Shown here in pieces: positions 3,782 to 33,243 of a stretch of DNA of 64,000 bases (position 1 is the stretch's first letter; each line of letters begins with the position of its first letter). The notes under the pieces are model-generated. The model saw only the letters and a list, made by a program, of their open reading frames with translations. It had not been told where the DNA came from and ran no database searches. Origin of the DNA: a virus; the IMG/VR virus record IMGVR_UViG_3300042988_001343, positions 1-64,000 of that record. One strand, 5' to 3'. Made by a program: the position numbers and the translations under genes.

Positions 3782-4225
3782 ATGAAATTTTACGACCTCT
3801 CCGAATCCAATCAAAATCAACTGTTGAATGCTACTCAATATCTGATGTCGACAGTATTCAATGTATATGGTAAAGAGGAGGGTGAGCGGGTATGGGGTGA
3901 AATTTCGGATGTACTTGGTGAGGGAGTCCGAGCAGAGATTTTGATGCGGGCACTATCTGGGAAAGCCATTCCTAATACTAAAATGTGCCTAGTTAAAATT
4001 ATACCAGGTGGACAAGGGAAATATTCTAACCAAACCAATCGAGTAGCTTTCATCAAAAAGATGAGGGAAGTTTCAGGATGTGGTCTTAAAGAGGCAATTG
4101 ATGCTGGAAATATGCTTGACGGTGGCAATGAAGTCAGACTTGAGATGGAGACTAAAAACTTCAATGATTATGAACACTACCTTCGACAATTTGGTATGAC
4201 TATTGAGTTCACTATTGACAATTAA
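3782..4225 (+). CDS. protein with ribosomal L7/L12 C-terminal-domain-like region
   Basis: VAFIKKMREVSGCGLKEAIDAGN resembles L7/L12 CTD [23 protein letters not shown]. Confidence 0.45.
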   Translation: MKFYDLSESNQNQLLNATQYLMSTVFNVYGKEEGERVWGEISDVLGEGVRAEILMRALSGKAIPNTKMCLVKIIPGGQGKYSNQTNRVAFIKKMREVSGCGLKEAIDAGNMLDGGNEVRLEMETKNFNDYEHYLRQFGMTIEFTIDN

Positions 4226-11461: not shown

Positions 11462-11513
11462 ACAGACTGCACTGACCTCCTGTGACTTCATCTACCTATA
11501 TTCCAGCCATTAG
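11454..11513 (+). pseudogene. duplicated, diverged 5' fragment of the nadV-like gene
   Basis: MFKQTALTSCDF... vs intact MFKQTALTSIDSYK at 12434; ~28/35 nt identical. Confidence 0.6.
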
Positions 11514-12294
11514 ACTTATAGTATAATTCATAAAGTTGTGGCATTACTCTTGATCTTGTAGATCCATTATTGATCCACACGGCAGTTTTTCTATCATAAA
11601 CTATATTGTGAATCTGTTTTAATTCATTTAATAAAATATCTTCTGGAGATAGTGGTTTCTTATTTTTGGGAATTCGTCCTTTTGATTCTGCAACTAATTC
11701 TCCTGAAATGTATCTTGGATCTTCTTTAGTTATTTGAAATTTATTGCCATTACTATCTTTTGCACAAAAATACCCTTTAGTATGACCGACATATTCACCA
11801 GATAAGTATGATGGATCATCACTATTAACTTTAAATTTATTTCCTAACTTATCTATTACTACTATTTTGCCCTTTGCTTTCTCTCCTATTTTTAATCTAC
11901 CTGATATAGGACAACCCTTTCCTCTCCTCCCAGCTGCTCTTTTGGCTACATGATCCTCTGATTGTTTTAAACCTGTTGCATCATGAAAGTAATCACCGTA
12001 TCCAGTAGATACATTTAAGAATCTTTTGTTTTTGCCTATTTTCATTCTATGTAATACTTTATGTTCCCAACTTAAAGCATCCTCTTTACATGTGAATTCC
12101 CTTCTGATTGAAATTACATCGGGCTCTCCGTGCATTTTTCTAAAGTTAGTAACATGCTTAGATGATGTAAAGTATACAGTCCATAAATCTTTTGGTGTTG
12201 TATTTTTGGCAAATCTAACTCCATAGTACCAAATGTCTAATTTTGACCATCCTATTAGATATGTAAATGGAGTATAAATATTTGTGCTGGACAT
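11488..12294 (-). CDS. GIY-YIG (Seg-like) homing endonuclease
   Basis: N-terminal GIY-YIG-like YTPFTYLIGW...YYGVRFAKN; C-terminal KDSNGNKFQ..DPRYISGEL repeats shared with ORF at 51446. Confidence 0.6.
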   Translation of the reverse strand: MSSTNIYTPFTYLIGWSKLDIWYYGVRFAKNTTPKDLWTVYFTSSKHVTNFRKMHGEPDVISIRREFTCKEDALSWEHKVLHRMKIGKNKRFLNVSTGYGDYFHDATGLKQSEDHVAKRAAGRRGKGCPISGRLKIGEKAKGKIVVIDKLGNKFKVNSDDPSYLSGEYVGHTKGYFCAKDSNGNKFQITKEDPRYISGELVAESKGRIPKNKKPLSPEDILLNELKQIHNIVYDRKTAVWINNGSTRSRVMPQLYELYYKSNGWNIGR

Positions 12295-12365
12295 AATTGG
12301 ATCCTTTCTGATTGTTGAAATGTCTAGAGCCCATGAATCTGCCAGGATTGCGATGGGCATTTCTA

Positions 12366-12433
12366 TTGACAATTAATTGCTAGTTGTCTATAATGTATTT
12401 ATGATAATTTGAATTGTGAAAAGGAAATATATT
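12366..12433 (+). promoter_or_regulatory. sigma70-type early promoter
   Basis: TTGACA 12366-12371, 17 nt, TATAAT 12389-12394. Confidence 0.6.
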
Positions 12434-13930
12434 ATGTTTAAACAGACTGCGTTAACCTCTATTGACTCTTACAAGCTTTCGCACGCCGAACAATATCCAG
12501 TTGGTATTACTAAGGTTTATTCTAACTTCACTCCTCGTTCTGAGTCTCACTTCAATGTCCCATCTGAATTTAAAGATGGTAAGATTGTTTGGTTTGGTCT
12601 ACAGATGTTCTTGCAAGAACTCAATGCAGTATGGAAAGAAACCTTTTTCGACCTTGCATTTGATGAAGTGGAAAAAGAAGCTCTAGAGTTTTATGCACCA
12701 TTTTGTGGTCCTAATGGATTCAATGTAAGTCGACTCGAAGAACTCCACAATCTCGGTTACCTTCCATTGGAAATCAAGGCCCTTCCTGAGGGAGTACGTG
12801 TACCGATTGGTGTACCGGTTCTTACCATCACCAATACTCTGCCACAATTTGCATGGTTGCCAAATTTCCTTGAGACTTGGATGTCTTGTGAACTTTGGAA
12901 ATCCTGTACCTCTGCAACTACTTCTTTCGTATATCGGAAGATTCTGAATAAGTACCAGAAACTCACTGGTGGCTTTGAAGGATTCGTGCAGTGGCAGTCA
13001 CACGATTTTTCTGTACGTGGTATGTCTGGTATCTATGATGCTGCTAAATCTGGTGCTGGTCATCTGTTGAGTTCTACCGGTACTGATAACCTACCAGCAG
13101 TAAAGTTGATCAATGACTGTTACCGTGGTAAGGAAACCTTTGTTGGCGGTTCTGTACCAGCAACTGAACACAGTGTGATGTGTGCAGGTGGTAAGGAATC
13201 AGAAGTTGAAACCTTCCGGCGACTGATTAAAACATATCCTTCTGGTGTTGTATCAATCGTATCTGATACTTGGGACTTCTGGAATGTTATTACCAACACT
13301 GCTCGTGAACTCAAAGATGAAATTCTTGCACGGGTTCCTGACCAGTTTGGTTTGGCAAAGGTTGTATTCCGGCCTGACTCAGGTGATCCTGTTAAGATTA
13401 TCTGTGGTGATCCTGAAGCTGAGGTTGGTTCTCCTGCTTTCAAAGGTGCTGTTGAATGCCTTGCTGAAATCTTTGGCACCACGACCAATGATAAAGGGTT
13501 TAAGACTCTGAATCAGCGAGTTGGTTTGATCTATGGAGACTCCATTACTCCACAACGTGCAGATGAAATCCTATATCGTCTAGCTGCAAAGGGATTTGCT
13601 TCTGATAACATCGTATTCGGTGTAGGTAGTTATACTTTCCAATACCAGACTCGTGATACTCTCGGGTTTGCAATGAAGGCAACCTATGTCGAAATTGAAG
13701 GTGTCGGACAGGCAATCTTCAAGGATCCAAAGACTGATTCTGGTACTAAGAAGTCCGCAAAGGGATTGTTGAGTGTTGGTAAGGATAACAATGATCAGTT
13801 TGTATTGGTAGATCGGTGTGAACAACATGTTGAAAAACTTGGATTCTTGCAGACTGTATACAAAGACGGTAAGATTCTTGTTAATGATTCATTTGCTGAA
13901 ATTCGTGCACGTTTGGAGACTTATCTATGA
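12434..13930 (+). CDS. nicotinamide phosphoribosyltransferase family protein (NadV/Nampt; candidate Namat)
   Basis: DSYKLSHAEQYP Nampt motif; ~500 aa. Confidence 0.75.
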   Translation: MFKQTALTSIDSYKLSHAEQYPVGITKVYSNFTPRSESHFNVPSEFKDGKIVWFGLQMFLQELNAVWKETFFDLAFDEVEKEALEFYAPFCGPNGFNVSRLEELHNLGYLPLEIKALPEGVRVPIGVPVLTITNTLPQFAWLPNFLETWMSCELWKSCTSATTSFVYRKILNKYQKLTGGFEGFVQWQSHDFSVRGMSGIYDAAKSGAGHLLSSTGTDNLPAVKLINDCYRGKETFVGGSVPATEHSVMCAGGKESEVETFRRLIKTYPSGVVSIVSDTWDFWNVITNTARELKDEILARVPDQFGLAKVVFRPDSGDPVKIICGDPEAEVGSPAFKGAVECLAEIFGTTTNDKGFKTLNQRVGLIYGDSITPQRADEILYRLAAKGFASDNIVFGVGSYTFQYQTRDTLGFAMKATYVEIEGVGQAIFKDPKTDSGTKKSAKGLLSVGKDNNDQFVLVDRCEQHVEKLGFLQTVYKDGKILVNDSFAEIRARLETYL

Positions 13931-15500: not shown

Positions 15501-15634
15501 GCTACGAAGAAATGTACAAAAAGTTTATTAATTGTGAAATCACTGAGGAAGAGTGGAGACAATACTGTTGGGACACGTTGAAGGTTATACTCATGGAAAA
15601 CATTGATGTATTCAAGAGACTGAAGGATCGGTGA
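15497..15634 (+). CDS. small hypothetical protein
   Basis: 45 aa ATGA-coupled ORF. Confidence 0.3.
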   Translation: MSYEEMYKKFINCEITEEEWRQYCWDTLKVILMENIDVFKRLKDR

Positions 15635-15870
15635 TGCAAAATGGAACAGTATTTAAAAAATTCTTGGATACTCTTTATTTGTTATGTAGTATTGGGGGTG
15701 CTTTACTGGTCGCTAGTAATACTGGTTATCAACTAGAAGGTTACATCCTATTCTTTATTGCAAGTGTTACTGGGTGTTTTCTACTTCTGAAGTCTGATGC
15801 ATCCAAGAGTTTATTTTGGGTATCTTTAATGTATGCAGTGATTAATGTTATTGGAATTGTGAGGGCATAA
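15631..15870 (+). CDS. membrane protein
   Basis: 79 aa, two hydrophobic segments. Confidence 0.45.
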   Translation: MMQNGTVFKKFLDTLYLLCSIGGALLVASNTGYQLEGYILFFIASVTGCFLLLKSDASKSLFWVSLMYAVINVIGIVRA

Positions 15871-16172
15871 TGCAAAATATTAAATGTTTTGAAGTATATG
15901 GGCACACTGATACTACCGAGGGTCGTGGTCCAATGAAGGTGGTTGCTCGATTTACTACTAGGAGTGAAGCTGAAAAGTATGTAACATCCGATGTATACTC
16001 TCAGTATTGTGTAATGGGTTATCAATCACCAAGGGATGTTGAACATATCAGACCTACTACGATTTTAATCCTAGATTCAATGTCTGAATTTGAGGAAATC
16101 CAGATCGAAAAGATGAAGTCAAAAGCTTTGACTAAGTTGACAGATCAGGAAAAGAAAATACTTGGATTGTAA
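15870..16172 (+). CDS. hypothetical protein
   Basis: 100 aa ORF. Confidence 0.5.
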   Translation: MQNIKCFEVYGHTDTTEGRGPMKVVARFTTRSEAEKYVTSDVYSQYCVMGYQSPRDVEHIRPTTILILDSMSEFEEIQIEKMKSKALTKLTDQEKKILGL

Positions 16173-16383
16173 TGCTATAATGAAAAGTGAAGACATTACC
16201 GTATATACATTTGTCATTTTAGCCATAGCAGGTATATTTGGTAATATGGCATATGAACAGTTGAGTATGATGACTCGAGTTCATAATTGCAATGAAGTTA
16301 TTATTGCTGCATTAAAAACTCAACAAATTCCAAAAGAAGAGTTGAATAAAATGATTGGAGTGTGTAATGGAAGGCATCGATAA
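16162..16383 (+). CDS. hypothetical protein
   Basis: 73 aa ORF. Confidence 0.4.
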   Translation: MDCNAIMKSEDITVYTFVILAIAGIFGNMAYEQLSMMTRVHNCNEVIIAALKTQQIPKEELNKMIGVCNGRHR

Positions 16384-16561
16384 AACAGTATGTATCATAA
16401 TTGCACTTTGTGTTATACCATGGGCTTTAGTTGGCATGATTGATTCTGCTAACCAATCAAATCTTAAGATTGAGTGCTATAGAGCTGCAGCTGAATTGGC
16501 AAAAATTGCTCAAAGTAAAAATCTAGAAATAGAAAAATTCACAATAAAATGTGATAAGTGA
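16355..16561 (+). CDS. hypothetical membrane protein
   Basis: 68 aa ORF. Confidence 0.4.
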   Translation: MECVMEGIDKTVCIIIALCVIPWALVGMIDSANQSNLKIECYRAAAELAKIAQSKNLEIEKFTIKCDK

Positions 16562-16567
16562 GGAATT

Positions 16568-16801
16568 ATGTTAAGAGGTAATCTATACACTACCGTTCCT
16601 GATGTACCAGGAATTTATATCTGTGCACACAAAGAAACTGGTGTTTATAAAATTGTGTGTCTATCCGAATCTGGTGAGTTTAAACCAACACTAACTCCAA
16701 CTGATTACTTGTGGTCAGAAAATATTGACCTTAAAGATCAGCTTGGTTATGTTACTCTTTCTAAAGCATACAAGAATACCTTAGAAGTTTTATCTGTTTA
16801 A
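16568..16801 (+). CDS. hypothetical protein
   Basis: 77 aa ORF. Confidence 0.45.
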   Translation: MLRGNLYTTVPDVPGIYICAHKETGVYKIVCLSESGEFKPTLTPTDYLWSENIDLKDQLGYVTLSKAYKNTLEVLSV

Positions 16802-16831
16802 TATTGATTCATTACAGCAAAGGAAATAAAC

Positions 16832-18265
16832 ATGAATCCGATCGTGAAGTCTATCCGTAATTTTACTTCTACCGCTAATGGTGCACCAACACTGAAGTCT
16901 ACAGGTTCATCCTGTGTTGACTTATTCAGCAAGGTTGGTTCTGCTCGTCAAGTAAATGAAAATGACATTGTCAATATGTTCTACAATGCAGCAATGGAAG
17001 ATATTGATGTAGCTACTCGCATTATGTTGTGGGCCCGAGATTGTCGTGGTGGTGCTGGCGAGCGTCGTGCATACCGTATCATGCTCAAGGAATTTGAAAC
17101 TTGGTGTATGGCAAATACAAACGGTATGGAAGTAATGCAGACTGTCGTTAACAAGACTGTAGAACTTGGTCGTTGGGACGATCTATTTGTACTTGATTCA
17201 TTCTTTGAGTTGGTTATCCAAAAGATTGCTGCTCAAATCAACACTGGTGACATTGGTCTACTTGCTAAGTGGCTTCCTCGTGAAAAGTCAGCCAACAAGG
17301 CTGTTGCATTCCGATTGATGAAGGGTCTTGGTATGACTCCTAAGCAGTACCGCAAATTCTGCTCTGGTGTTATCACAACTGAAACTCTGATGTGTGCTAA
17401 GAAGTGGGAAGATATCAATCTGTCTCACGTACCATCAGTTGCTTCAGCTCGGTACCAAAAGGCTTTCGAGAAGCAGCACCCAGGTTACTATGATTGGAAG
17501 TCTGGTTTGGAGTCTGGTGTTACTAAGGTTAATGTCTCAGTATCTTATCCTTATGATGTATACCGCACATTCAAGTCTGATGCTAGCCGAGAAGTAATTA
17601 ATGCTCAGTGGGATGCACTACCAAATTACATCAAGGAGGGTGTTTCAATTCTTCCAGTTGTTGATGTTTCTGGTTCAATGTCATGCCAAGCTAGTGGTGG
17701 TCTATCTTGTATGGATATCTCCATCTCTCTAGGTGCATACATTGCAAGTAAGAATACTGGTCCATTCGCTAAGGGTATGATTACCTTCCACGAAAATCCA
17801 ACCTTCTACTTCATGAAGTATGGCATCTATGATGAGTTTTCAAACATCAAGAATCTTCCATGGGGTGGTTCTACTAACTTTGAAGCAACATACAAGTTGA
17901 TTCTGAAGCATGCAAAGAGTGTAAATGCTTCACAAGAAGATATGCCAAAGTACTTGATTGTCTTGAGCGACATGCAGTTCAATATGGCCGAGGGTCGATA
18001 TGGACATGGTCATACAAACTTCGAAGCTATGGAAAAGACATTTGCAGAGGCAGGTTACAAGATGCCACAGATGATCTTCTGGAATTTGAATGCTGCTTAT
18101 GGTCGTGATGCTCAAGTAGGAGCAAATCAACCTGGTGTAAGCATGGTTTCTGGTTTCTCTCCTTCTATCCTGAAGGTTGTTCTATCAGGTGAAGAGTATA
18201 CTCCTATCCGTGCAATGATGGATACTGTTATGGTAGATCGTTACAAAGTTCTAGAAACAGATTGA
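16832..18265 (+). CDS. von Willebrand factor A-domain protein (DUF2828-like)
   Basis: MIDAS motif VVDVSGSMS and LIVLSDMQF in C-terminal half. Confidence 0.55.
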   Translation: MNPIVKSIRNFTSTANGAPTLKSTGSSCVDLFSKVGSARQVNENDIVNMFYNAAMEDIDVATRIMLWARDCRGGAGERRAYRIMLKEFETWCMANTNGMEVMQTVVNKTVELGRWDDLFVLDSFFELVIQKIAAQINTGDIGLLAKWLPREKSANKAVAFRLMKGLGMTPKQYRKFCSGVITTETLMCAKKWEDINLSHVPSVASARYQKAFEKQHPGYYDWKSGLESGVTKVNVSVSYPYDVYRTFKSDASREVINAQWDALPNYIKEGVSILPVVDVSGSMSCQASGGLSCMDISISLGAYIASKNTGPFAKGMITFHENPTFYFMKYGIYDEFSNIKNLPWGGSTNFEATYKLILKHAKSVNASQEDMPKYLIVLSDMQFNMAEGRYGHGHTNFEAMEKTFAEAGYKMPQMIFWNLNAAYGRDAQVGANQPGVSMVSGFSPSILKVVLSGEEYTPIRAMMDTVMVDRYKVLETD

Positions 18266-18321
18266 CATATATTCTCCGATCAATTATAATGTACTCATAG
18301 ATGATTGATCGGAGAAACAAA
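18262..18321 (+). promoter_or_regulatory. PeSL-like early promoter, perfect 13-bp inverted repeat
   Basis: TTGACA 18262-18267, TATAAT 18285-18290; ttctccgatcaat/attgatcggagaa. Confidence 0.7.
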
Positions 18322-18495
18322 ATGTTGACTAAGCGCCAAATCGAAGATTTACAATATTCTGATGAGTATGCAGAATATATCATGGAAAATGCTGGTGGTG
18401 ATCGTATTATCTGTAACGGTAACACACTTATTGCGGCAATGGAAGATGGTTATCTCTGGAATGAATTTTTGGAATCTATTGGAGAAGAGCAATGA
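18322..18495 (+). CDS. hypothetical protein
   Basis: ATG 18322 after GGAGAAACAAA; 18301 ATG lies inside cassette. Confidence 0.5.
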   Translation: MLTKRQIEDLQYSDEYAEYIMENAGGDRIICNGNTLIAAMEDGYLWNEFLESIGEEQ

Positions 18496-18650
18496 ACTTC
18501 GAAGAAATCATGGTTATGTGTGAACATATTGTATTCTCAGTTTTGCATGAAACTTCAAAAGAGGGTCTTGCAAAGGTATACGATCTGCCTATTACTGATG
18601 ACTTATTTGATCGATGTGTTGCAATTGAAATTGGGAACTTTTACAAGTGA
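18492..18650 (+). CDS. small hypothetical protein
   Basis: 52 aa ATGA-coupled ORF. Confidence 0.3.
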   Translation: MNFEEIMVMCEHIVFSVLHETSKEGLAKVYDLPITDDLFDRCVAIEIGNFYK

Positions 18651-18904
18651 ACTATGTTGAACCAAAGAAAGTAAAACTTAAAGTACCTAAGGAGAGTCGG
18701 GATGAGTTATTTTTCCGACTCTCTGTAAAGGGATTTAAGCGAATTGCCGACAAACTTGAACTCCTATGGGGATCAGCACAAATTGATGATTATTTTGTAC
18801 AACTTATCATTGACTACCGTGGGGATCGGGAAGGTTTTCCAAAGGATGTTTTGAGTATTGTATTACAGCTGTTTATCCTACACAATGAAAGTAACCATGA
18901 ATAA
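18647..18904 (+). CDS. hypothetical protein
   Basis: 85 aa ORF. Confidence 0.5.
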   Translation: MNYVEPKKVKLKVPKESRDELFFRLSVKGFKRIADKLELLWGSAQIDDYFVQLIIDYRGDREGFPKDVLSIVLQLFILHNESNHE

Positions 18905-19103
18905 CTCTCCTGAGATTGGTGACATATTCTCTACTGATATCTGTTTCAAGTACTCTTGGAAAGGAGTTGGTGCAGAATGGATCCGACTCAAACAGGTAGA
19001 AAGTGATAAATTTACCCTTAAAGGTAAGTTAACAAAAGATCAGCTTCGTGTTATCCTTGAGGAATATGTTGAGCGTGTACTTGATATGGTTGAAGTAAAG
19101 TGA
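18897..19103 (+). CDS. hypothetical protein
   Basis: ORF, ATGA coupling. Confidence 0.4.
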   Translation: MNNSPEIGDIFSTDICFKYSWKGVGAEWIRLKQVESDKFTLKGKLTKDQLRVILEEYVERVLDMVEVK

Positions 19104-19429
19104 TATCCAATGGTGTTGATGAACTTTTGATTACAACAGCAGAAGAATGTGCTGAAGTAACTCAAGTCATCAGTAAGATACTTCGGTTTGGTATAGATGA
19201 TACTCACCCTGTACGAGAAAAGACAAACAGGGAAGAACTTGAGGTTGAGATTGGTGACCTCATGTCAATGATTGATTTGTTGGCTGAAGCAGGAATCATC
19301 GATGTTGCAAAGGTACATAATGCTAAACTCATGAAGAGGATTAAATTTAATGAGTGGCGAAAGTATCAGACTGATAGGGCTAAAGTACTTCCGTGGTTGG
19401 GTAAACCAGTAAGTCACTGGGCACAATGA
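19100..19429 (+). CDS. hypothetical protein
   Basis: 109 aa ORF. Confidence 0.5.
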   Translation: MISNGVDELLITTAEECAEVTQVISKILRFGIDDTHPVREKTNREELEVEIGDLMSMIDLLAEAGIIDVAKVHNAKLMKRIKFNEWRKYQTDRAKVLPWLGKPVSHWAQ

Positions 19430-19455
19430 GCACCTTTTGGTGCTTTTTGTTTGTC
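19428..19455 (+). terminator. rho-independent terminator
   Basis: agcaccttttggtgct hairpin + ttttgtttg. Confidence 0.6.
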
Positions 19456-19461
19456 CATGTG

Positions 19462-19525
19462 TTGACAATTATTTCTCCTTGAGTTATAATGAACTCAATC
19501 GATCAAACACTGAAGGAGAAATAAC
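19462..19525 (+). promoter_or_regulatory. PeSL-like early promoter
   Basis: TTGACA 19462-19467, TATAAT 19485-19490, GAACTCAATCGATCAAACA. Confidence 0.65.
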
Positions 19526-19927
19526 ATGGCATGGTTTAATCAAGAAATGAAAGCAGCTCGTGCACCTTCCATCAAAAGCATTGCTAAGAAGTACGGTGTA
19601 AAGGTTTCACTTGGTGTTAATAACCACTCCACTTTCGTGATCAACATCAAGTCCGGTTCTATTGACTTCATCAAAAATTACAACGAAACTGTTGCTCTTG
19701 CATATGATGACCATCGCCGCGCTGAAGGCTCACTTCGTGTTAATGAATATTGGTACCATGAACACTTTACCGGCAAAGCTAAAGCATTCCTCAAAGAATT
19801 GATGGAAGCAGCAAATGTCGGTAACCATGACAACAGTGATCCTCAGACCGACTATTTTGATGTTGGTTTCTATACTTCCATTAATGTTGGTCAGTGGGAC
19901 AAGCCTTATGTATACGAAGCTAAGTAA
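19526..19927 (+). CDS. hypothetical protein
   Basis: 133 aa ORF. Confidence 0.55.
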   Translation: MAWFNQEMKAARAPSIKSIAKKYGVKVSLGVNNHSTFVINIKSGSIDFIKNYNETVALAYDDHRRAEGSLRVNEYWYHEHFTGKAKAFLKELMEAANVGNHDNSDPQTDYFDVGFYTSINVGQWDKPYVYEAK

Positions 19928-20183
19928 GTTAGAAGACTGGAGTTCGGTAAGATACGAACTCTGGTCTAAAACCTGGGATGCTCTACCGATAAATTCAAGG
20001 TATATTAAAGACCTATCCGCAATATTTGCAAACTTTGATACCATGGTAAAAGAAGTATCCCAGACAATTCCTGAAGTAAATCGTACAAAGAATAAACGAT
20101 TGTACGAAGAGAAGTTGGAAAAGTTGAACCAATCACTGAAGGACTGGGAAGAACAATTGCTGATTCTTGCATTGGGACTATAG
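19908..20183 (+). CDS. hypothetical protein
   Basis: ORF; start uncertain. Confidence 0.35.
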   Translation: MYTKLSKLEDWSSVRYELWSKTWDALPINSRYIKDLSAIFANFDTMVKEVSQTIPEVNRTKNKRLYEEKLEKLNQSLKDWEEQLLILALGL

Positions 20184-20184
20184 T

Positions 20185-20913
20185 ATGTTACTTATTACAA
20201 ATTTCAAAGATTACTACGATCACATGGCATCCTATGGTGTGGATAAGACTATTCCATATCGTAGGTTGGCTAATACAATAAACCACTGGGAAAATCGATA
20301 CTTTAACCTGGCAGTTAAGTGCGAGGAAAAGATCAATCCAAACTGGATGACTTACAATTACTATGAAAGTAAGCGACACAATCCTGCTCATGAAGCAAGA
20401 CTTGGGGTAAAAGGAATCGATGCAGTTCATGCCGGCTGGTTTGGCTTTTGTGGAAAGATTTATCCAGTAAATGTTGTTACTTTTATTCCAACTAGCACTA
20501 ATACTGATTTGGTTATATTTGCTGGTACTAAATTGGCAGACATGTTTATTGATTCACCCGATATCCCAAAGAAGGGATATCGTAAGTGGAGATATATCAA
20601 TGCTGGACTTCAAGAGAGATATAACCACGATGGGTGTTTTGCTGAAAACAAAGTTATTCAAGACGAAGCTCCATTTGGTACTCTACAAACTCCCTACTTT
20701 TTAAGTTGCGGTGGTAATATATGGAAGAACTTCCCCCTACGCAATACTGACTTTCCAAAGGTTATGCATGCTCAAGATGTATGGCAACAGTTACAGTTTT
20801 TCCTTACAAATACTCTTCGTATCAATGATCGACCAATGCTTGAAGTAGAAGAAAAGTACAAGATTATTGGTGCTGGGTTTGATCTTAAAACTTCATTTAG
20901 GCATCCAGTATGA
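20185..20913 (+). CDS. hypothetical protein
   Basis: 242 aa ORF. Confidence 0.55.
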   Translation: MLLITNFKDYYDHMASYGVDKTIPYRRLANTINHWENRYFNLAVKCEEKINPNWMTYNYYESKRHNPAHEARLGVKGIDAVHAGWFGFCGKIYPVNVVTFIPTSTNTDLVIFAGTKLADMFIDSPDIPKKGYRKWRYINAGLQERYNHDGCFAENKVIQDEAPFGTLQTPYFLSCGGNIWKNFPLRNTDFPKVMHAQDVWQQLQFFLTNTLRINDRPMLEVEEKYKIIGAGFDLKTSFRHPV

Positions 20914-21182
20914 TAAGCAATACGTTTTATGTTGAATCAGCAAGTGAAGGTAATGTTATGAGGACTGTTAATAAACTCATAACTCTACTTGAGACTGGCG
21001 CTTATGGAAAAGGAAAGTTGTGGGAAAGTCCACCAACTAAAAGACCTAACATTTCAAAATACCAATGGTGGGTAGAATATGACTGTATAGAGGATGAGGA
21101 TGCAGATGAGTTTAGTGTCCAAGAATATACTTTCTACTTTAAGGATGAGCAGACATGGCTGTTGCTAAACCTATCACTTTGA
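20910..21182 (+). CDS. hypothetical protein
   Basis: 90 aa ORF. Confidence 0.45.
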   Translation: MISNTFYVESASEGNVMRTVNKLITLLETGAYGKGKLWESPPTKRPNISKYQWWVEYDCIEDEDADEFSVQEYTFYFKDEQTWLLLNLSL

Positions 21183-21409
21183 AACTTTACCTGCATAAAT
21201 TATCTGGTAATGACTATGACAATAGAATTGAATCATTACAACAGCTAAAGTCTATGTTTAAAGTATCAGAAAAGTACCCACCGGAGTTTTATATGAATTC
21301 TCCTTATGACATTTGGATTACTGGCTGGGTACCATTAAGGATAGCATGTAAGACTAAAGAAATTGCATTAATGGTAGGAATGATTATTCCTGGCGTAGAA
21401 ATCGATTGA
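21155..21409 (+). CDS. hypothetical protein
   Basis: 84 aa ORF. Confidence 0.45.
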   Translation: MAVAKPITLKLYLHKLSGNDYDNRIESLQQLKSMFKVSEKYPPEFYMNSPYDIWITGWVPLRIACKTKEIALMVGMIIPGVEID

Positions 21410-21463
21410 CATAAACAAGTACATCTGTTATAATTACTATAAATCAAATAAAGAGGAATAATC
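21406..21463 (+). promoter_or_regulatory. sigma70-type early promoter driving a ligase 5' fragment
   Basis: TTGACA 21406-21411, 17 nt, TATAAT 21429-21434. Confidence 0.55.
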
Positions 21464-21517
21464 ATGAGTATCCTAGACATCATCAAAGAACTTCGTGCCG
21501 ACAACAGTCGACTTTAG
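21464..21517 (+). pseudogene. duplicated, diverged 5' fragment of the DNA ligase gene (17 codons)
   Basis: MSILDIIKELRADNSRL vs ligase N-term MHILKILNELAATSSRND. Confidence 0.55.
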
Positions 21518-22224
21518 ATTTTATTTTTACACTTATTTCCATGATGTCTAGAATAATTACCTGGGCTTAACCATTTATTACAATGCTCACATGTTTTATA
21601 ATTCTTAATTTTCCATTCTTCTGAATGTTGTATTTGTGATATTTTTGTGGCCATTTCTTTCCCAGTTGTATTTTTCCAATCTTCATCATTTATTGTTTTA
21701 TTTCTCTTTTCTGTTTTCACTTTCATATTTTGTTCATATTCTTTTGAATTTAATGTCTTAGATAAAGATTCGGAAATATTATTAGCTCGAATTTTCCCAG
21801 TTGTATTTTTCCAATCTTCATCATTTATTGTTTTATTTCTCTTTTCTGTATTGTTGTATGTTGATATCCCATGTCTTAGTAATTTAGTCTCTTTTGTTTT
21901 AATTACTGACTCTATGGTTGGTTTGAATTTTTGTTTATTATAATAGCAAACTGAATTTATTAATAATTCATTATACCAATGTTCATTAATGAGCTGTTGT
22001 TCAAAATCATAAGCATCATCACCACATAAAAATTCTGCTATTATTTCCCAATAAAAGTCATCAAAGGTTGGATTTACTACTTTTGATGAAGTTTTATATC
22101 TTGGTAAATCGATATTTGATGGTTGAGTATTTGCTTCCCTATATCCAATGTAAAAATGCCCAGTCTCTTTATGTGTGCAAATATAAACATATGGAAATGC
22201 TTTATCCGATGAATAAATATTCAT
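21514..22224 (-). CDS. GIY-YIG homing endonuclease with internal 45-aa tandem duplication
   Basis: YVYICTHKETGHFYIGY GIY-YIG motif; KRNKTINDEDWKNTTGK repeated. Confidence 0.7.
   Translation of the reverse strand: MNIYSSDKAFPYVYICTHKETGHFYIGYREANTQPSNIDLPRYKTSSKVVNPTFDDFYWEIIAEFLCGDDAYDFEQQLINEHWYNELLINSVCYYNKQKFKPTIESVIKTKETKLLRHGISTYNNTEKRNKTINDEDWKNTTGKIRANNISESLSKTLNSKEYEQNMKVKTEKRNKTINDEDWKNTTGKEMATKISQIQHSEEWKIKNYKTCEHCNKWLSPGNYSRHHGNKCKNKI
21657..21852. repeat. tandem direct repeat (~58-nt near-identical core, 135-nt period) inside the GIY-YIG gene
   Basis: ttcccagttgtatttttccaatcttcatcatttattgttttatttctcttttctgt occurs at ~21657 and ~21792. Confidence 0.7.
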
Positions 22225-22313
22225 GCTGGTTTTCTCCTGTAAGTAATCGAACTAGAACCCATGGATATTGGCGTATCGCGATGGGTAAATTTAAACTCAA
22301 TGCTAAATTTCAT

Positions 22314-22367
22314 TGACATTTAATAACTATATTTATATAATTGATGATTATTGATAGGAGATTTATT
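22314..22367 (+). promoter_or_regulatory. sigma70-type early promoter
   Basis: TTGACA 22314-22319, 16 nt, TATAAT 22336-22341. Confidence 0.55.
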
Positions 22368-23648
22368 ATGCACATATTAAAAATATTGAACGAGCTGGCA
22401 GCAACAAGTTCAAGAAATGATAAAATTAATATCCTGAAACGTGAAGTTGACAATGAAGTCCTCAAACAGGTCTTTTTTACAACACTGAACCCATATTCCC
22501 AATTCTATCTGCGCCAGATTCCTGGTTATGGAATTGAGACAAAGCCAATCATGTCACTGACTGAGGCCATTGATAAACTGTCAAAAATTTCCAATCGTGA
22601 AGTTACTGGACATGCAGCCATTGATTACTTGAGCAATATTCTTTCCAGTGTCAAACGTGAAGATGCTGCAGTGATCGAACTGATCATTAAGCGGGACCTC
22701 GATGTTGGTGCTCAGACGAACACAGTCAATAAAATCTGGCCAGGGTTGATTCCAACCTTTGAAGTCATGCTCTGTAGTAAAGATATGGACTACATTGTTT
22801 ATCCTGCACTAGCTGAACTGAAGTGTGATGGTGCTCGTTGTCACCTTAACTGGGACGGTACAAAGGCTACCGCAATGAGTCGTTCTGGTAAAGAATTCCA
22901 ACTCTTGGGTGCTCTGGATCATACTGCATCACTATTCATGGAACCAGGTCAGACTTGGGATGGTGAACTCCTTGTTGTCAATGATGATCTGAGTATTGCA
23001 GACCGCAGTACTGGTAATGGTATCCTGAATAAGGCCAATAAGGGAACTATCTCTAAAGACGAAGCTGCTCGTATCATCTTCTGTCCGTGGGATATTGTTG
23101 ATCAAACTGGCACAATCGATCTAATCGACCGTCACAATAAAATTAAAGCTGCATTTGAGTTGGTTGGATCCTTCTCACCGATGCTTCGCTTCCGTCAAGT
23201 AGAATCTCGGATTGTTAATTCAGCAGAAGAAGCACAAGAATTCTTTGCTGAGATGTTGGCAAAGAAAGAAGAAGGTGCCATCATCAAAAATCTAAAGTCC
23301 AAGTGGGTTCCTAAGCGTAGCAAGGATTTGGTGAAACTCAAGGCAGAAGAAGTAGCTGATCTGGTAGTTGTAGATTGGGCTGAAGGTACTGGAAAATATA
23401 CTGGTATGATGGGAGCCTTGGTTTGCCAAACATCAGATGGTCTGCTTGAAGTCTCTGTTGGTTCTGGATTTACTGATGAACAGCGCAAGACTCTAAAGAA
23501 AGATGATGTCGTTGGTCGTGTACTAGAAGTAATGTACAATGCGGTTATTCAGAGCAAAGGTCGTGATGTAAAGAGCCTGTTCCTTCCACGTGCTCTAGAA
23601 TTCCGATTCGACAAGGATGTTGCCAACACACTGGATGAACTTAAATAA
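22368..23648 (+). CDS. 30: ATP-dependent DNA ligase (T4 gp30-like)
   Basis: AELKCDGARC KxDG adenylation motif; ~426 aa. Confidence 0.8.
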   Translation: MHILKILNELAATSSRNDKINILKREVDNEVLKQVFFTTLNPYSQFYLRQIPGYGIETKPIMSLTEAIDKLSKISNREVTGHAAIDYLSNILSSVKREDAAVIELIIKRDLDVGAQTNTVNKIWPGLIPTFEVMLCSKDMDYIVYPALAELKCDGARCHLNWDGTKATAMSRSGKEFQLLGALDHTASLFMEPGQTWDGELLVVNDDLSIADRSTGNGILNKANKGTISKDEAARIIFCPWDIVDQTGTIDLIDRHNKIKAAFELVGSFSPMLRFRQVESRIVNSAEEAQEFFAEMLAKKEEGAIIKNLKSKWVPKRSKDLVKLKAEEVADLVVVDWAEGTGKYTGMMGALVCQTSDGLLEVSVGSGFTDEQRKTLKKDDVVGRVLEVMYNAVIQSKGRDVKSLFLPRALEFRFDKDVANTLDELK

Positions 23649-23674
23649 GTATTTGCATCCAACTAGGAAATTGT

Positions 23675-24454
23675 ATGAAACTGCGTATTATGTCGGACCT
23701 CCACTTGGAACATTATCGTGGAGTCCTTCCATTTCAATTTGAGGAAGAAAAAGATACCATTCTAGTATTGGCTGGTGATATATGTCCTTTCAGACTCGAT
23801 AGTATGTTATTCGATTTCCTAGAAATGGTTTCTCCTCTTTACTTCAAAGTATTAATTGTAGCAGGTAACCATGAGTACTACGGTTCATTCATGTCTGAGT
23901 TGGAGTCCATTAAAAAGACAGTAAAAGAAAATAAGCTGGATAATGTATACTACTTAGAAAACGAATGTCTACAAGTTGGTGACATTACTTTCTGTGGTGC
24001 TACTCTGTGGACTGACTTTGATAAAGGATCCCCTACTGCAATGATTGATGTTGAGTATGGACTCAACGATTTTAGACTTATTCGTATGTCAAGGGATAAT
24101 CCACGATTGTTAAAAGCAGAAGATACTTATGAGTTTCATAAAAAGTCCATTGCTTTTATGCATCATGTAACAGCACATCGGAAACCTACTGGTAAGGTTG
24201 TGTGGATTGTCCACCATGGAGTTAGTTACCAATCTGTTGCTCCGATGTTTGTTGGGAGTAATATAAATTGTGGATTTGTTTCAGAGCTTGGTTGGGACCT
24301 TACTGAAATGTCCGCAACACCAGATTTAATTATTCATGGACATGTCCATAATCATAATGACTACATGATTGGTGAAACTCGAGTTATCTCTAACCCACTA
24401 GGTTATCCACGAGAGAATGCATGCTTTGTGGTTGACAAATATGTGGAACTCTGA
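23675..24454 (+). CDS. calcineurin-like metallophosphoesterase
   Basis: IMSDLHLE...LVLAGDI...AGNHEY motifs. Confidence 0.65.
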   Translation: MKLRIMSDLHLEHYRGVLPFQFEEEKDTILVLAGDICPFRLDSMLFDFLEMVSPLYFKVLIVAGNHEYYGSFMSELESIKKTVKENKLDNVYYLENECLQVGDITFCGATLWTDFDKGSPTAMIDVEYGLNDFRLIRMSRDNPRLLKAEDTYEFHKKSIAFMHHVTAHRKPTGKVVWIVHHGVSYQSVAPMFVGSNINCGFVSELGWDLTEMSATPDLIIHGHVHNHNDYMIGETRVISNPLGYPRENACFVVDKYVEL

Positions 24455-24487
24455 TATTATGTAAGAAATAAACAAAAGGATTTAAAC

Positions 24488-24535
24488 ATGCTTTACTTTA
24501 CAAGTGATCTCCATTTCAGCCATATCATTAGATAA
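24488..24535 (+). pseudogene. duplicated 5' fragment (15 codons) of the downstream metallophosphoesterase gene
   Basis: MLYFTSDLHFSHIIR* vs MIYFTSDLHF... at 25489. Confidence 0.55.
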
Positions 24536-24583: not shown

Positions 24584-25492
24584 ATGCCAGATAGATTAGA
24601 AAGACATACATTGCAATGTAAATGTTGCAATAAAGATATAATATGTAGAATTACTGAATTTAAAAAGTTTTGTTCTAGGAAATGCAAAAATGACTTTTCT
24701 AGAGGAAAAACTTTTGAAGAATTATATGGCGAGGAAGAAGCAATAAGAAGAAAATTATTGATGTCCGAAAATGCAAAAGGAGAAAATAATCCAAATTACA
24801 ATAATCCTTGGTCAGATGAACAGAGAAAAAATCAATCTGATATTATGCATAAAAGATATGAGGATCCTGAAGCAAGATATAGAGCAGGCACCTCAAATAG
24901 AGGCAAGAAATTCAGCAAAGAGAGAATAGAAAAGATGCATGGTCATAGGACTTTTGAGTCTTATAGTAGACCCATGCCTAATTATGCAAAAATAATAATC
25001 GGGGAAAAATCAAGTGCTAAATGGACTCCAGAATTCACCGCCGATTTTAGAAAAACTATGGAATCTAAAGGACATTGGATTCCTCTAGAAAATAAAACTG
25101 AGTATGACATATATGGTGCTGCCGGCAATTGGGTAGATAGGATGTGGGATCAACCAATCAAAGGTACTGGACTTATAGAAGAATATGGAATTTTTAATTC
25201 TATTTCAAACTCAAAAGGAGTTGTTAGGGATCACATCTTTAATCGCAGAGATGGATTAGCCATGGGAGTTTTCCCAGAGATCCTCAGACACCCAGCAAAC
25301 TGTCAAATAATTACTCACGCCGACAATGTAAAAAAGAGAAGTAACAGTGAAAAAACTCTTGACAGATTATTGCAAGATATATTAGAATGGAAATATGAAT
25401 GGTTCGAACAATCTCTAGCAGTAGAGAAAGTTAATATGTACCTAAACGGCTTTAGATGGATTAACGAATTTAGAAAGGAGGAATCTGAATGA
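24584..25492 (+). CDS. HNH homing endonuclease
   Basis: C-terminal RDHIFNRRDG...HPANCQIITHADNVKK HNH-like; N-terminal Cys cluster; possible late-type TATAAATG at ~24563. Confidence 0.55.
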   Translation: MPDRLERHTLQCKCCNKDIICRITEFKKFCSRKCKNDFSRGKTFEELYGEEEAIRRKLLMSENAKGENNPNYNNPWSDEQRKNQSDIMHKRYEDPEARYRAGTSNRGKKFSKERIEKMHGHRTFESYSRPMPNYAKIIIGEKSSAKWTPEFTADFRKTMESKGHWIPLENKTEYDIYGAAGNWVDRMWDQPIKGTGLIEEYGIFNSISNSKGVVRDHIFNRRDGLAMGVFPEILRHPANCQIITHADNVKKRSNSEKTLDRLLQDILEWKYEWFEQSLAVEKVNMYLNGFRWINEFRKEESE

Positions 25493-26086
25493 TTTATTTT
25501 ACTTCAGATTTGCATTTTCTCGCACACTAATATCATCAAGTACTCTCCTGGAACCCGCGGTGGTTTCACTGATGTAGCTGAGATGAATGAAACCATCATC
25601 CAGAATTGGAATGCTACGGTTGGTGTAGAAGATGAAGTTTGGATCCTTGGTGATGTGTCCTTCGATAAGCGTGGAGAACAAGTTCGGGATCATATTTCTA
25701 GACTTAAGGGTAAGAAATTTCTTGTCCTTGGTAACCATGATCATGTAATTAAGAAGCATGCTCTTGATCTCTTCGAGGAAGTATATGACTATCGAAAGCT
25801 CTATTATCAAGACAAGAACCACCCAAAAGGTCGATGGGAATTTATCCTCTGTCACTATCCTATCATTTCTTGGGACATGCGGCACCACGGATCAATTCAC
25901 TGTCATGGTCATTGCCATGGTACTTTGAAACTTCCAGCTGGTATGCAGACAAATATGTTCGATGTTGGAGTTGATAATGTAGAGTGGAATTTTGCACCTG
26001 TATCAGCAGAAGAACTTATCTCTCGTTGGGTTAACATCAAGTATATGAAATCACAAGACCATCATGATGTACGGGATCCAAGATGA
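25489..26086 (+). CDS. metallophosphoesterase, apparent +1 frameshift after codon 10 in a T-run (possible pseudogene or sequencing error)
   Basis: MIYFTSDLHF (frame 1) continues as SHTNIIKYSPGTRGGFTDVAEMNETIIQ...GDVSFD...GNHDH in frame 2 (ORF 25583-26086). Confidence 0.55.
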
Positions 26087-33193: not shown

Positions 33194-33243
33194 GTAGTGT
33201 TATGTTATAATGGTTCTATGGTAACTAATCGGGATTGAATGAA
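33183..33243 (+). promoter_or_regulatory. sigma70-type promoter
   Basis: TAGACA 33183-33188, 17 nt, TATAAT 33206-33211. Confidence 0.45.

Follow-up and report, generated by a model that had tools for sequence, protein, structure and literature searches.

The phage whose DNA makes up the 64-kb stretch analysed here (the window) has T4-like core genes and is a distant T4-like phage. At its DNA ligase locus, a gene for a predicted Seg-like GIY-YIG homing endonuclease lies between a short 5′ fragment of a ligase gene (the stub), which is still preceded by a promoter, and a complete ligase gene of another lineage (the resident ligase). We think it probable that the native ligase allele was replaced in an endonuclease-driven event that left this stub behind, rather than that a duplicated gene start drifted away from its original.

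The ligase stub and the resident ligase

The initial annotation had placed a promoter, a short ORF, an endonuclease gene and a ligase gene in this region, and all of them were found where it located them. The features of the locus are as follows:

21155–21409, plus strand: upstream 84-aa gene (ORF list, sequence)
21406–21434, plus strand: stub promoter, a 12/12 match to TTGACA-N17-TATAAT with TG before the −10
21464–21517, plus strand: ligase 5′ stub, MSILDIIKELRADNSRL, 17 codons followed by TAG (profile score, alignments)
21514–22224, minus strand: predicted free-standing Seg-like GIY-YIG homing endonuclease gene, 236 aa (phrog_314, motifs, predicted fold)
21658–21717 and 21793–21852 (span 21658–21852), minus strand: two 60-nt direct repeats, 98% identical (repeat search, BLAST self-match)
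22257–22286, minus strand: conserved 5′-UTR hairpin of the endonuclease mRNA, ACCCAT ... ATGGGT (alignment of five UTRs)
22313–22341, plus strand: ligase early promoter, a 12/12 consensus match
22330–22337, minus strand: T4-late-promoter-like TATAAATA, 106–113 nt upstream of the endonuclease ATG
22368–23648, plus strand: intact ATP-dependent DNA ligase gene of the T4-gp30 type, 426 aa, 'ATSSRN' subtype (PF01068, PF14743, phrog_114)

That the 17-codon ORF is a ligase 5′ fragment equipped with its own promoter, as had been proposed, is borne out by both its coding sequence and its signals. We scored it with a position matrix derived from residues 1–17 of 119 ligase homologues, the window's own ligase being left out: the stub obtained 45.2 bits, the resident ligase 45.3 bits and the runner-up among the 127,894 six-frame 17-mers of the window −3.7 bits. 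The runner-up thus trails by about 49 bits; the resemblance is far beyond chance, and the stub is a genuine ligase N-terminus. It is contiguous with the upstream gene and with a promoter that matches the consensus at all 12 positions; the window contains 17 such perfect TTGACA-N17-TATAAT matches, every one of them on the plus strand, where 0.07 would be expected by chance. Under the replacement reading, it would be the native promoter, of the early sigma-70 consensus type, of the ligase allele that was displaced. The TGA stop codon of the 84-aa gene, which has no match in Pfam or PHROG, falls within its −35 hexamer. A Shine–Dalgarno sequence (AAGAGGA, 21451–21457) is found upstream of the stub ORF, whose stop codon overlaps that of the minus-strand endonuclease ORF, the two sharing TTAG.

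The lineage of the stub is directly apparent from alignments: 14 of its 17 residues are identical in the N-termini of three ligase homologues (P0041, P0069 and P0114), against 9 of 17 in the resident ligase. At the nucleotide level, the stub and the resident 5′ end agree at only 23 of 51 coding positions (45%; 24/54 when the stop codon is included), which is roughly the level of unrelated AT-rich DNA, whereas the stub and the 5′ end of the ligase gene in a different phage, L002, agree at 40 of 51 positions (78%), with one run of 26/27 that takes in synonymous positions. This comparison contradicts the target duplication that the initial annotation had read into the locus. On sequence grounds, we assign the stub to an 'ADNSRL' sub-lineage and the resident ligase to an 'ATSSRN' type. 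L002 is not a close relative overall, its neighbouring proteins being about 53% identical, so that its 78% match to the stub may reflect endonuclease-linked exchange and not native ancestry. The nearest homologue of an upstream 242-aa gene is found in L045 (48% identity), with no ligase nearby. The stub itself is undecayed: its promoter is perfect, its Shine–Dalgarno sequence and ATG are kept, and its profile score equals that of the working gene. Its divergence from the resident ligase is therefore older than the juxtaposition of the two.

The possibility that the short ORF is conserved as an independent gene was also considered: in the ligase loci of related phages that include the 5′ end of the gene, the profile gives exactly one ligase N-terminus and zero stubs. 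An exact-pattern scan for the stub in two sequence collections returned no match. The stub–endonuclease junction is real and was independently assembled twice, since it is also present in a second metagenome, where contig L044 is 100% identical over 15514–22351.

The resident ligase is complete. It matches PF01068 (1.7e-15), PF14743 (5.3e-12) and phrog_114 (1.3e-117), aligns end to end, its own N-terminus included, with 100% coverage against 120 homologues, and has every invariant residue, K152, D154 and G155 of its K152-x-D-G motif being invariant in the alignment. It is preceded by a Shine–Dalgarno sequence (TAGGAG, 22355–22360) and by the early promoter at 22313–22341, which was probably imported along with the endonuclease gene. 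Its top full-length homologues have its own N-terminal subtype, and a segment-wise comparison revealed no segment unusually close to the lineage of the stub, hence no sign of a chimera at codon 17; judged in this way, the resident ligase looks entirely foreign to that lineage. Its GC content (42–46%) is higher, but not decisive for its origin. A gene-in-pieces arrangement was rejected because the downstream ligase is whole, N-terminus included, so that the fragments are not complementary.

The endonuclease gene and its relatives at other sites

The gap between the stub and the resident ligase is occupied by a gene of the GIY-YIG homing endonuclease type, in agreement with the initial annotation. 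Its product matches phrog_314 'homing endonuclease' (2.9e-10) and contains the catalytic motif VY14 ... Y25-I-G27-Y-R29, with Y14, Y25, G27, R29, E75 and N90 invariant across 47 homologues. The 236-aa protein itself has no Pfam match even at E up to 5 (PF01541 and PF19835 included); among 33 aligned family members, 13 match PF01541 (best 1.2e-5), four match SegE_GIY-YIG and 21 match NUMOD3. In an AlphaFold2 model, residues 1–100 have pLDDT values of 85–98, and the top three PDB matches of the model correspond to the I-TevI catalytic domain (probability 0.97–0.99, target-normalised TM-score 0.56–0.62, weak E-values of 0.04–0.06), followed by UvrC GIY-YIG and Slx1. Together, the invariant residues, the I-TevI-like predicted fold and the Pfam matches of the family identify the ORF as a predicted Seg-like GIY-YIG endonuclease. 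The catalytic domain (residues 1–100) is followed by a repeated helical linker and by a C-terminal zinc-finger-like CxxC...HxxxC module, whose C-x2-C ... H-x3-C motif aligns with homologues; the 60-nt repeats double the peptide TEKRNKTINDEDWKNTTGK in this linker, which is putatively DNA-binding. With a GC content of 26–29% against 36–40% in the flanks, the gene is a compositional outlier. Carriage by a group I intron or an intein was rejected, as the endonuclease gene lies on the opposite strand and the ligase ORF is uninterrupted; an Rfam scan of 21000–22600 detected no intron and a single chance match (E-value 0.54).

The endonuclease gene seems to be equipped with a late-type promoter of its own and with a 5′-UTR hairpin. 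In T4-type late promoters, TATAAATA lies about 6–7 nt upstream of the transcript start (gp55 holoenzyme). The element at 22330–22337 overlaps the opposite-strand −10 of the ligase early promoter, the two making up a bidirectional module. The minus strand of the window contains ATAAATA at only three places, each 76–112 nt upstream of a minus-strand GIY-YIG gene, and the same late-promoter-like element is carried by L024 and L042; there is no overall enrichment of TATAAATA across the window, which is a mostly early region. The 6-bp stem of the hairpin, after which comes a CTCTA-like motif, is 100% paired in five 5′ UTRs of the family, with compensatory changes in 5 of the 6 pairs.

A donor-type arrangement exists: in L024, a promoter and a ligase gene are directly preceded by a minus-strand gene for a GIY-YIG homologue (43% identity in the catalytic domain), the stub being absent. 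Ligase flanks are an endonuclease hot spot, with an HNH endonuclease at the equivalent position in L002–L004 and endonucleases just downstream of the ligase in L019 and L020.

The initial annotation had described three sites of one architecture. The layout was indeed found at the ligase, nadV and phosphoesterase genes; the third enzyme, however, is a co-oriented NUMOD3 protein and not a GIY-YIG endonuclease. The other two stubs are:

11454–11513, plus strand: nadV 5′ stub (MFKQTALTS...), homology covering 11454–11487
24488–24535, plus strand: phosphoesterase 5′ stub, MLYFTSDLHFSHIIR followed by a stop codon, 24/36 nt and 11/12 aa identical in comparison with the gene start at 25489

The nadV stub is 82% identical over 34 nt (11454–11487 versus 12434–12467) to the start of the intact nadV gene (12434–13930, promoter at 12366–12394). 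It lacks a separate promoter, shares bases with the prs stop codon and directly adjoins a minus-strand GIY-YIG gene (11488–12297) at the stop codon of the latter. At the ligase and nadV sites alike, the stub junction lies exactly at the endonuclease stop codon. The phosphoesterase stub has a promoter (TTGACA-N17-TATTAT, 24432–24460) and is followed by the NUMOD3 protein gene (24584–25492) and by the full phosphoesterase gene, which starts at 25489 with an ATGA overlap and contains a +1 frameshift in a T-run at 25513–25516. A fourth GIY-YIG gene in the window adjoins gene 32 and has no stub.

Members of the endonuclease family in other phages also lie beside terminal fragments, namely a 5′ stub of a DnaB-like helicase gene (L050), a ClpP 3′ remnant (L062 and L040) and a vWA 3′ remnant (L098). 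Terminal-fragment matches were found at 8 of 77 loci versus 2 of 227 mismatched-flank controls, and the remnants, 5′ and 3′, are only 10–30 codons long. At the ligase, nadV and phosphoesterase sites and in L050, L062 and L098, two diverged copies of a terminus, one working and one redundant, flank the endonuclease ORF. Altogether, the layout of stub, endonuclease gene and intact gene recurs across sites and phages.

Origin of the arrangement

We infer the position of the cut, the direction of transfer and the repair pathway as follows. In the ancestor phage, an 'ADNSRL'-type ligase gene would have come directly after the promoter at 21406. During co-infection with an endonuclease-bearing phage, this gene would have been cut about 50 nt into its coding sequence and the break repaired from the donor. 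Because the two ligases are homologous on the gene-body side, synthesis would have copied the donor 'ATSSRN' ligase, its early promoter and the endonuclease gene; on the other side, beyond the endonuclease gene, homology would have been lacking and the copied strand would therefore have been joined illegitimately to the broken end. With repair homologous on the gene-body side only, the native promoter, Shine–Dalgarno sequence and first 17 codons would have been stranded as a stub, terminated by a chance TAG overlapping the stop codon of the endonuclease gene. Afterwards, the whole unit from stub to ligase could spread into naive alleles by ordinary two-sided homing, with the stub and upstream DNA as left homology arm, and the imported ligase 5′ end, different at 28 of 51 positions, would resist cutting. 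A search for an endonuclease-free close relative in which the promoter and stub run into a full 'ADNSRL' ligase found none. Random illegitimate joining does not predict a junction at the endonuclease stop codon in two sites, which suggests later trimming or a cassette with defined ends.

Such a terminus-swap cassette would bring the endonuclease gene, the bidirectional promoter and about 17 codons that replace the 5′ end of the target, and would enter coding sequence at a fixed position by two-sided homing; the working ligase would then be foreign in its first codons only, on a native gene body. We regard this reading as possible, at less than even probability. It fits the tight junctions at the ligase and nadV sites, the presence at both of a late-promoter-like element that overlaps or abuts the early −10 of the target gene, suggesting a compact co-travelling unit, and the fact that one family gives 5′ stubs as well as 3′ remnants of such short length; it is also the exact mirror of fungal mitochondrial mobile ORFs with a foreign C-terminus (PMC3630166). 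However, the N-terminal subtype of the resident ligase is that of its best full-length homologues, its body is nowhere near the lineage of the stub (a weak test without a close relative of the native gene), and an initial illegitimate event would still be required. It is conceivable, albeit doubtful, that Seg-like GIY-YIG endonucleases of T4-like phages routinely move as cassettes of this kind, made of a bidirectional early/late promoter, a conserved 5′-UTR hairpin and a cleavage-resistant terminus of 10–30 codons. If so, they would insert inside conserved coding sequences without intron or intein, a third general answer to how homing elements sit harmlessly in essential genes, and stubs would record cleavage or insertion sites, making target sites readable from sequence only.

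The persistence of the stub might alternatively reflect a function, its promoter acting as a second early ligase promoter and producing an antisense RNA that silences the endonuclease until late infection. No terminator is predicted from 21434 to the ligase gene, the endonuclease gene lies on the opposite strand behind the late-type TATAAATA element, the stub is undecayed, and a 15-bp inverted repeat pairs stub codons 2–7 with the 3′ end of the endonuclease coding sequence (minus-strand RNA fold of −28.6 kcal/mol, z = −3.0). We nevertheless consider retention for function unlikely: a promoter of its own is lacking for the nadV stub, no such inverted repeat is seen at the other sites, and a recent event accounts equally well for the missing decay. 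It would explain why the stub persists and not how it arose, and is therefore compatible with allele replacement. Very unlikely is a true target-site duplication, in which the first 17 codons of the resident ligase would have been duplicated on insertion and the copies would then have drifted. The insert is indeed flanked by direct repeats, the stub on one side and the gene start on the other, and at nadV the identity of the copies is still 82%; yet the ligase copies match at 23/51 nt while the signals and profile score of the stub are intact, although a nonfunctional drifted copy would have decayed, and the ligase of phage L002 matches the stub at 78% identity. Moreover, homing through double-strand-break repair is not known to produce duplications of its target. 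As for an accidental similarity, a separate small gene, a leader peptide or a two-strain assembly chimera, which an ORF of only 17 codons in a metagenome assembly could bring to mind, these are refuted for practical purposes by the bit-score gap, by the lack of such an ORF at related ligase loci that include the 5′ end of the gene, and by the identical junction in an independent contig from a different sample.

Relation to known mobile elements

Free-standing homing endonucleases are drivers of much of the mosaicism of T4-like phages; for only a few of these enzymes is it known which sites they target and by what route they enter. Under allele replacement, a stranded stub would be the molecular fossil of an event in which a foreign allele took the place of an entire essential gene (ligase, nadV, phosphoesterase), and it would reveal both the side of the break that was without homology and the rough position of the cut. 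If stubs are as common as 8/77 loci, they could allow computational prediction of cleavage sites for many uncharacterised endonucleases and detection of endonuclease-driven gene replacement in metagenomic phage genomes. Annotators should be aware that stubs will be called tiny 'hypothetical proteins', that the promoters ahead of them appear to be real, and that trees of neighbouring 'core' genes may depart from the phage tree.

One close parallel is with SegA–G of T4 and intronless homing (SegF, SegG), which share with the window endonuclease a GIY-YIG domain with a modular tail (putatively DNA-binding in the window protein), an intergenic position in a T4-like genome, a low GC content and an apparent late-type promoter. 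T4 segG adjoins gene 32, like the fourth GIY-YIG copy of the window. By analogy, endonuclease-free phages would be expected to be cut in the neighbouring gene, and the flanking DNA to be co-converted. In the descriptions provided by the available parts of PMC2988022 and PMC2993671, T4 seg genes occupy clean positions between genes that are intact, and a 5′ fragment of a target left stranded is not reported. The window differs in that invasion appears to have left a promoter-bearing stub of another allele, and in having three such sites in 64 kb. Genes can also be left in pieces by endonuclease insertion, as with nrdA of Aeromonas phage Aeh1, split by mobE, and T4 gene 39/60 with mobA. There too, a conserved phage gene has a homing endonuclease gene within its territory and keeps its function; both complementary pieces are needed, however, whereas the window ligase is complete and its stub redundant.

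For the T4 td intron, experiments have demonstrated one-sided homing with illegitimate junctions (Parker, Belisle and Belfort 1999, summarised in PMC2988022). Homology is used on one side of the break and the other junction is non-homologous or microhomologous, which predicts that recipient sequence is kept up to the break; that work, as covered there, concerned an intron and engineered substrates in the laboratory, whereas the window would represent a natural outcome for a free-standing endonuclease. Mobile ORFs that bring a foreign terminus are known in fungal mitochondria, in Allomyces atp6 and in Glomus atp6, atp9, cox2 and nad3 (PMC3630166). An endonuclease ORF and a foreign terminus replace the native terminus, which persists beside the insert, diverged and redundant, the copies differing mostly in nucleotides. 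These cases differ in that they concern 3′ ends, frequently within the reading frame of the host gene, in organelle genomes, and mostly involve LAGLIDADG enzymes; at the 5′ ends seen in the window, a new promoter and ribosome-binding site are needed. L062 and L098 are the phage counterpart of the fungal 3′-end version.

Finally, HEG islands mark boundaries of genetic exchange and bracket conserved cargo genes (Barth et al. 2023, PMC10448857); a term search of that article gave no description of terminal fragments of a replaced allele left stranded. The window resembles such islands in that its ligase and metallophosphoesterase genes lie between two endonuclease genes, and in the repeat found in the putative DNA-binding region of the endonuclease gene.

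The ligase locus and its GIY-YIG gene

At the ligase locus, the initial annotation had placed a promoter and a short ORF, a minus-strand gene in the gap, and a ligase gene starting at 22368 behind a promoter of its own. This layout was borne out, the elements being the following:

21406–21434 (+), promoter of the short ORF, a perfect sigma-70 consensus (TTGACA-N17-TATAAT) with TG before the −10
21451–21457 (+), Shine-Dalgarno sequence of the short ORF, AAGAGGA
21464–21517 (+), short ORF of 17 codons (the stub), MSILDIIKELRADNSRL and a stop codon, downstream of the first promoter
22224 to 21514 (−), endonuclease ORF, 236 aa
22313–22341 (+), promoter of the intact ligase, a second perfect TTGACA-N17-TATAAT
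22368 (+), start of the intact ATP-dependent DNA ligase, 426 aa (PF01068, PF14743, and phrog_114 at 1e-117)

The stop codons of the endonuclease ORF and the short ORF overlap. Both promoters are ordinary early promoters of the phage: the window contains 17 perfect TTGACA-N17-TATAAT sequences, all on the + strand and spanning positions 491 to 47740, versus 0.07 expected by chance. Many of the 17 share a spacer motif, ATTAATTCTCC...GT, which the stub and ligase promoters lack. The TGA stop codon of the upstream gene sits within the −35 hexamer of the stub promoter, and from this merging we infer that the stub side is the resident side. The stub–endonuclease junction is not an assembly accident, since L044, an 8-kb contig from another JGI sample (3300047552), is 100% identical to window positions 15514–22351 and thus across the junction. 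This contig, which belongs to the same phage, stops at 22351, past the ligase promoter but short of the ligase ATG, and the intact ligase protein is recorded on one contig only; together these may point to strain variation at the ligase gene.

The 236-aa protein itself has no Pfam match, and PHROG 314 ('homing endonuclease') matches it at 2.9e-10. It has 161 homologues at E values up to 1e-5, which are often about 60% identical to it over the first 100 residues. Residues Y14, Y25, G27, R29, E75 and N90, invariant over 47 homologues, constitute the GIY-YIG signature, and among 33 aligned family members PF01541 is found in 13 and NUMOD3 in 21. The AlphaFold2 model, built from the family alignment minus one row that came from a locus, has a pLDDT above 90 across most of the N-terminal domain; in a fold search of the PDB its best three matches are to the I-TevI catalytic domain (probability 0.97–0.99), followed by the UvrC and Slx1 GIY-YIG domains. 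A profile search of the PDB with the family returned only a low-complexity match to huntingtin. Altogether, the invariant residues, the Pfam matches of the family and the predicted I-TevI-like fold uphold the earlier assignment of a GIY-YIG gene between the fragment and the intact ligase. With a GC content of 26–29%, versus 36–40% in its flanks, the gene is a compositional outlier. The window also encodes several T4-type proteins (gp32, gp48, gp53, gp5-like proteins and RNA ligases 1 and 2); the phage is a distant relative of T4, so that 'Seg-like' best describes the enzyme. Note that the endonuclease gene contains a 60-nt direct repeat, 98% identical (21658–21717 and 21793–21852), which doubles a 19-residue module of the DNA-binding linker; it looks like a recent internal duplication and may alter target specificity.

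The short ORF as the N-terminus of another ligase allele

A position matrix was derived from the first 17 residues of 119 of 120 ligase homologues, the window's own gene being left out, and used to scan all 127,894 six-frame 17-mers of the window. The start of the intact ligase scored 45.3 bits, the short ORF 45.2 bits and the next best 17-mer −3.7 bits, in full agreement with the reported resemblance of the short ORF to a ligase N-terminus. The ligase that it resembles most closely belongs to another subtype: the short ORF is identical at 14 of 17 positions to the N-termini of three homologues (P0041, P0069 and P0114) of the 'ELAADNSRL' type, whereas the intact ligase and several of its top full-length homologues (e.g. 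P0005, P0006 and P0013) are of the 'ELAATSS(T/R)N' type.

The initial annotation had further read the stub as a duplication of the 5' end of the intact ligase, and this part of its interpretation does not hold. In an ATG-anchored alignment, the stub matches the intact gene at 23 of 51 coding nucleotides (24/54 with the stop codon), versus 40 of 51 for the ligase 5' end of contig L002, including a 26/27 run that covers synonymous positions. A copy that drifted after duplication was also considered and rejected: at 45% identity, the stub has kept a 12/12 promoter, a Shine-Dalgarno sequence, an ATG and the profile score of a working gene. Since expression signals and profile score are intact at this level of identity, the two alleles were already different when they were juxtaposed. 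The identity of the parts stands, and the observation itself is confirmed. Three further readings were rejected, a split gene and an intron or intein for the locus, and a conserved leader peptide for the short ORF.

A sliding-window chimera test, of low power, found no segment of the intact ligase close to the lineage of the stub, and GC content leaves the origin of the intact ligase undecided. A close relative lacking the endonuclease, with the stub running on into a complete ligase gene, was sought with the exact pattern ATCATCNAAGAACTTCGTGCCGACAAC, but neither viral_contigs nor metagenome_contigs contained it. Tracing the upstream 242-aa gene through its homologues pointed to three contigs (L045–L047), with no ligase nearby. 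Megablast of positions 20900–23700 against 50,697 phage records gave no match, and the best ligase in these records is less than 40% identical to the intact ligase.

Across related ligase loci in which the 5' end of the gene is present, the N-terminal profile matches exactly once per locus, at the gene's own start; the short ORF therefore does not qualify as a conserved gene in its own right. In one relative (L024), the minus strand just ahead of a promoter and ligase bears a GIY-YIG homologue, 43% identical in its catalytic domain, which overlaps the 3' end of a further, unrelated gene and comes with no stub; this arrangement illustrates a possible donor form. Elsewhere, an HNH/NUMOD3 endonuclease occupies the exact place of the window's GIY-YIG gene (L002–L004; in L002, 838–1470, −), or an endonuclease immediately follows the ligase (L019, 6261–7076, −; L020, 6239–6973, +). 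The ligase-flanking endonucleases of L002, L019 and L020 are unrelated, and their presence at both flanks in several phages indicates that the ligase flanks are a hot spot, targeted recurrently. Other members of the family of the window's endonuclease adjoin dnaB, clpP or DUF2201 genes; the family as a whole is therefore not ligase-specific.

Recurrence of terminal stubs and a proposed mechanism for their formation

The earlier proposal that the architecture recurs at the nadV and phosphoesterase genes was also correct, each site displaying a terminal stub, an endonuclease-type gene and then the full gene. The features of these sites, and of a fourth GIY-YIG gene, are:

11454 (+), ATG of the nadV stub, which opens MFKQTALTS and overlaps the end of prs (11461)
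11488–12297 (−), nadV-site GIY-YIG gene, ending one base past the end of the stub homology
24432–24460 (+), promoter of the phosphoesterase stub, TTGACA-N17-TATTAT
24488–24535 (+), phosphoesterase stub behind this promoter, MLYFTSDLHFSHIIR and a stop codon
24584–25492 (+), gene for a 302-aa NUMOD3 protein, downstream of the stub and co-oriented with it
25489–26086 (+), phosphoesterase gene, opening MIYFTSDLHF at 25489, downstream of the NUMOD3 gene
51446–52321 (−), fourth GIY-YIG gene, convergent with gene 32 (50599–51474) and overlapping its 3' end by 29 nt

The nadV stub is 82% identical to the true nadV start (12434) over 34 nt. The phosphoesterase frame is shifted by one extra T in the T-run 25513–25516 (codon 10–11), close to where its stub ends, and deleting one T restores a 198-aa phosphoesterase with a DxH motif; the frameshift might reflect an error in sequencing, a scar left by repair, or a pseudogene. 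The fourth GIY-YIG gene has no stub. Its location recalls that of segG in T4, and in its 5' UTR and first residues (MSSTNIY) it is nearly identical to the endonuclease gene at the nadV site. A 409-aa protein encoded at 33235–34464 (+), matched by phrog_1314 ('HNH endonuclease') at 2e-106, may be a further mobile nuclease.

Beyond the window, we fetched 79 IMG/VR loci of the endonuclease family. Protein-level comparison of the two sides of each endonuclease gene revealed diverged direct repeats spanning it in 8 of 77 loci (including two window sites), versus 2 of 227 mismatched-flank controls, by a crude test for which the ligase site is too diverged. In three loci (L050, L053 and L054), a 31-codon 5' stub and the complete gene for a DnaB-like helicase enclose an endonuclease gene of the same orientation. 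In L062 and L063 (and L040), a complete ClpP gene is followed by an endonuclease gene convergent with it and then by a remnant of the ClpP C-terminus (YLVDEIVTKRP and a stop codon). In L098, the endonuclease gene lies between a vWA-TerF-like gene and a remnant of the C-terminus. The target genes were confirmed by Pfam, and short terminal remnants of neighbouring genes thus recur in the family, at either gene end. A generic stub finder (threshold, 9/12 identical residues) recovered the nadV site and paralogue families only; to detect stubs as diverged as that of the ligase, a family profile is required.

The mechanism with the best support is an allele replacement driven by the endonuclease, in which homology was confined to one side. 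The enzyme would cut a ligase allele that lacks the endonuclease gene, some 50 nt from the start of the coding sequence; free-standing homing enzymes cut close to their own insertion point (PMC2988022). The gene-body end would then invade the donor ligase, and synthesis would copy back through the donor 5' end, promoter and endonuclease gene. Because there is no homology beyond the endonuclease gene, the copied strand would be joined illegitimately to the other broken end, so that the first 17 codons of the native gene would be stranded along with its promoter and Shine-Dalgarno sequence. A rival, or complementary, view is that the unit now behaves as a discrete cassette of a terminus-swap kind, homing by ordinary recombination on both sides, where the stub provides the left arm. 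In its favor, the ligase and nadV junctions fall exactly at the endonuclease stop codon and the promoter region between endonuclease gene and target forms a compact bidirectional module, neither of which is explained by a random illegitimate join. As to precedents, one-sided homing with illegitimate junctions has been shown experimentally for the T4 td intron, according to the summary in PMC2988022 of Parker, Belisle and Belfort (1999). The closest natural analogue is the fungal mitochondrial mobile ORF, which brings in a foreign C-terminus while the native one persists as a remnant (PMC3630166). The parts are of known kinds (a Seg-like endonuclease, intronless homing, illegitimate one-sided repair); in the literature searched, we found no description in phages of a promoter-bearing 5' stub of a displaced allele, or of the repetition of stubs seen here at three sites and in relatives at both gene ends.

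Candidate late signals upstream of the endonuclease genes

On the minus strand, ATAAATA occurs just three times in the 64-kb window, each time 76–112 nt ahead of the start codon (ATG) of a GIY-YIG gene on that strand. The corresponding elements, with those of two relatives, are:

22330–22337 (−), ligase-site element, TATAAATA, overlapping the −10 of the ligase promoter
12395–12402 (−), ATAAATA-containing element
52390–52397 (−), ATAAATA-containing element
~4965–4972 (−) of L024, like element
~3932–3939 (+) of L042, like element
22257–22286 (−), hairpin in the endonuclease mRNA 5' UTR, with equivalents upstream of 12297 and 52321 and in L024 and L042

At the ligase and nadV sites, the element coincides in part with, or lies right beside, the −10 of the early promoter that serves the target gene on the opposite strand. 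There is no overall enrichment of TATAAATA in the window, the informative pattern being specific to strand and position. The element resembles the T4 late promoter. Downstream of it, the 6-bp stem of the hairpin is 100% paired in five sequences and is followed by CTCTA, five of the six pairs having undergone compensatory changes; it has no Rfam match and may be a leader for stability or translational control. Judging from the element and the hairpin together, the endonuclease genes appear to be late genes whose mRNA has a structured leader and which run antisense to the surrounding early transcription unit.

At the other end of the ligase-site gene, a 15-nt inverted repeat (14/15; 21469–21483 and 21541–21555), not seen at the nadV site, pairs stub codons 2–7 with the part of the endonuclease gene that encodes YSRHH. 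Over the endonuclease stop codon, the minus-strand RNA has a predicted fold of −28.6 kcal/mol (z = −3.0), the plus strand being unremarkable.
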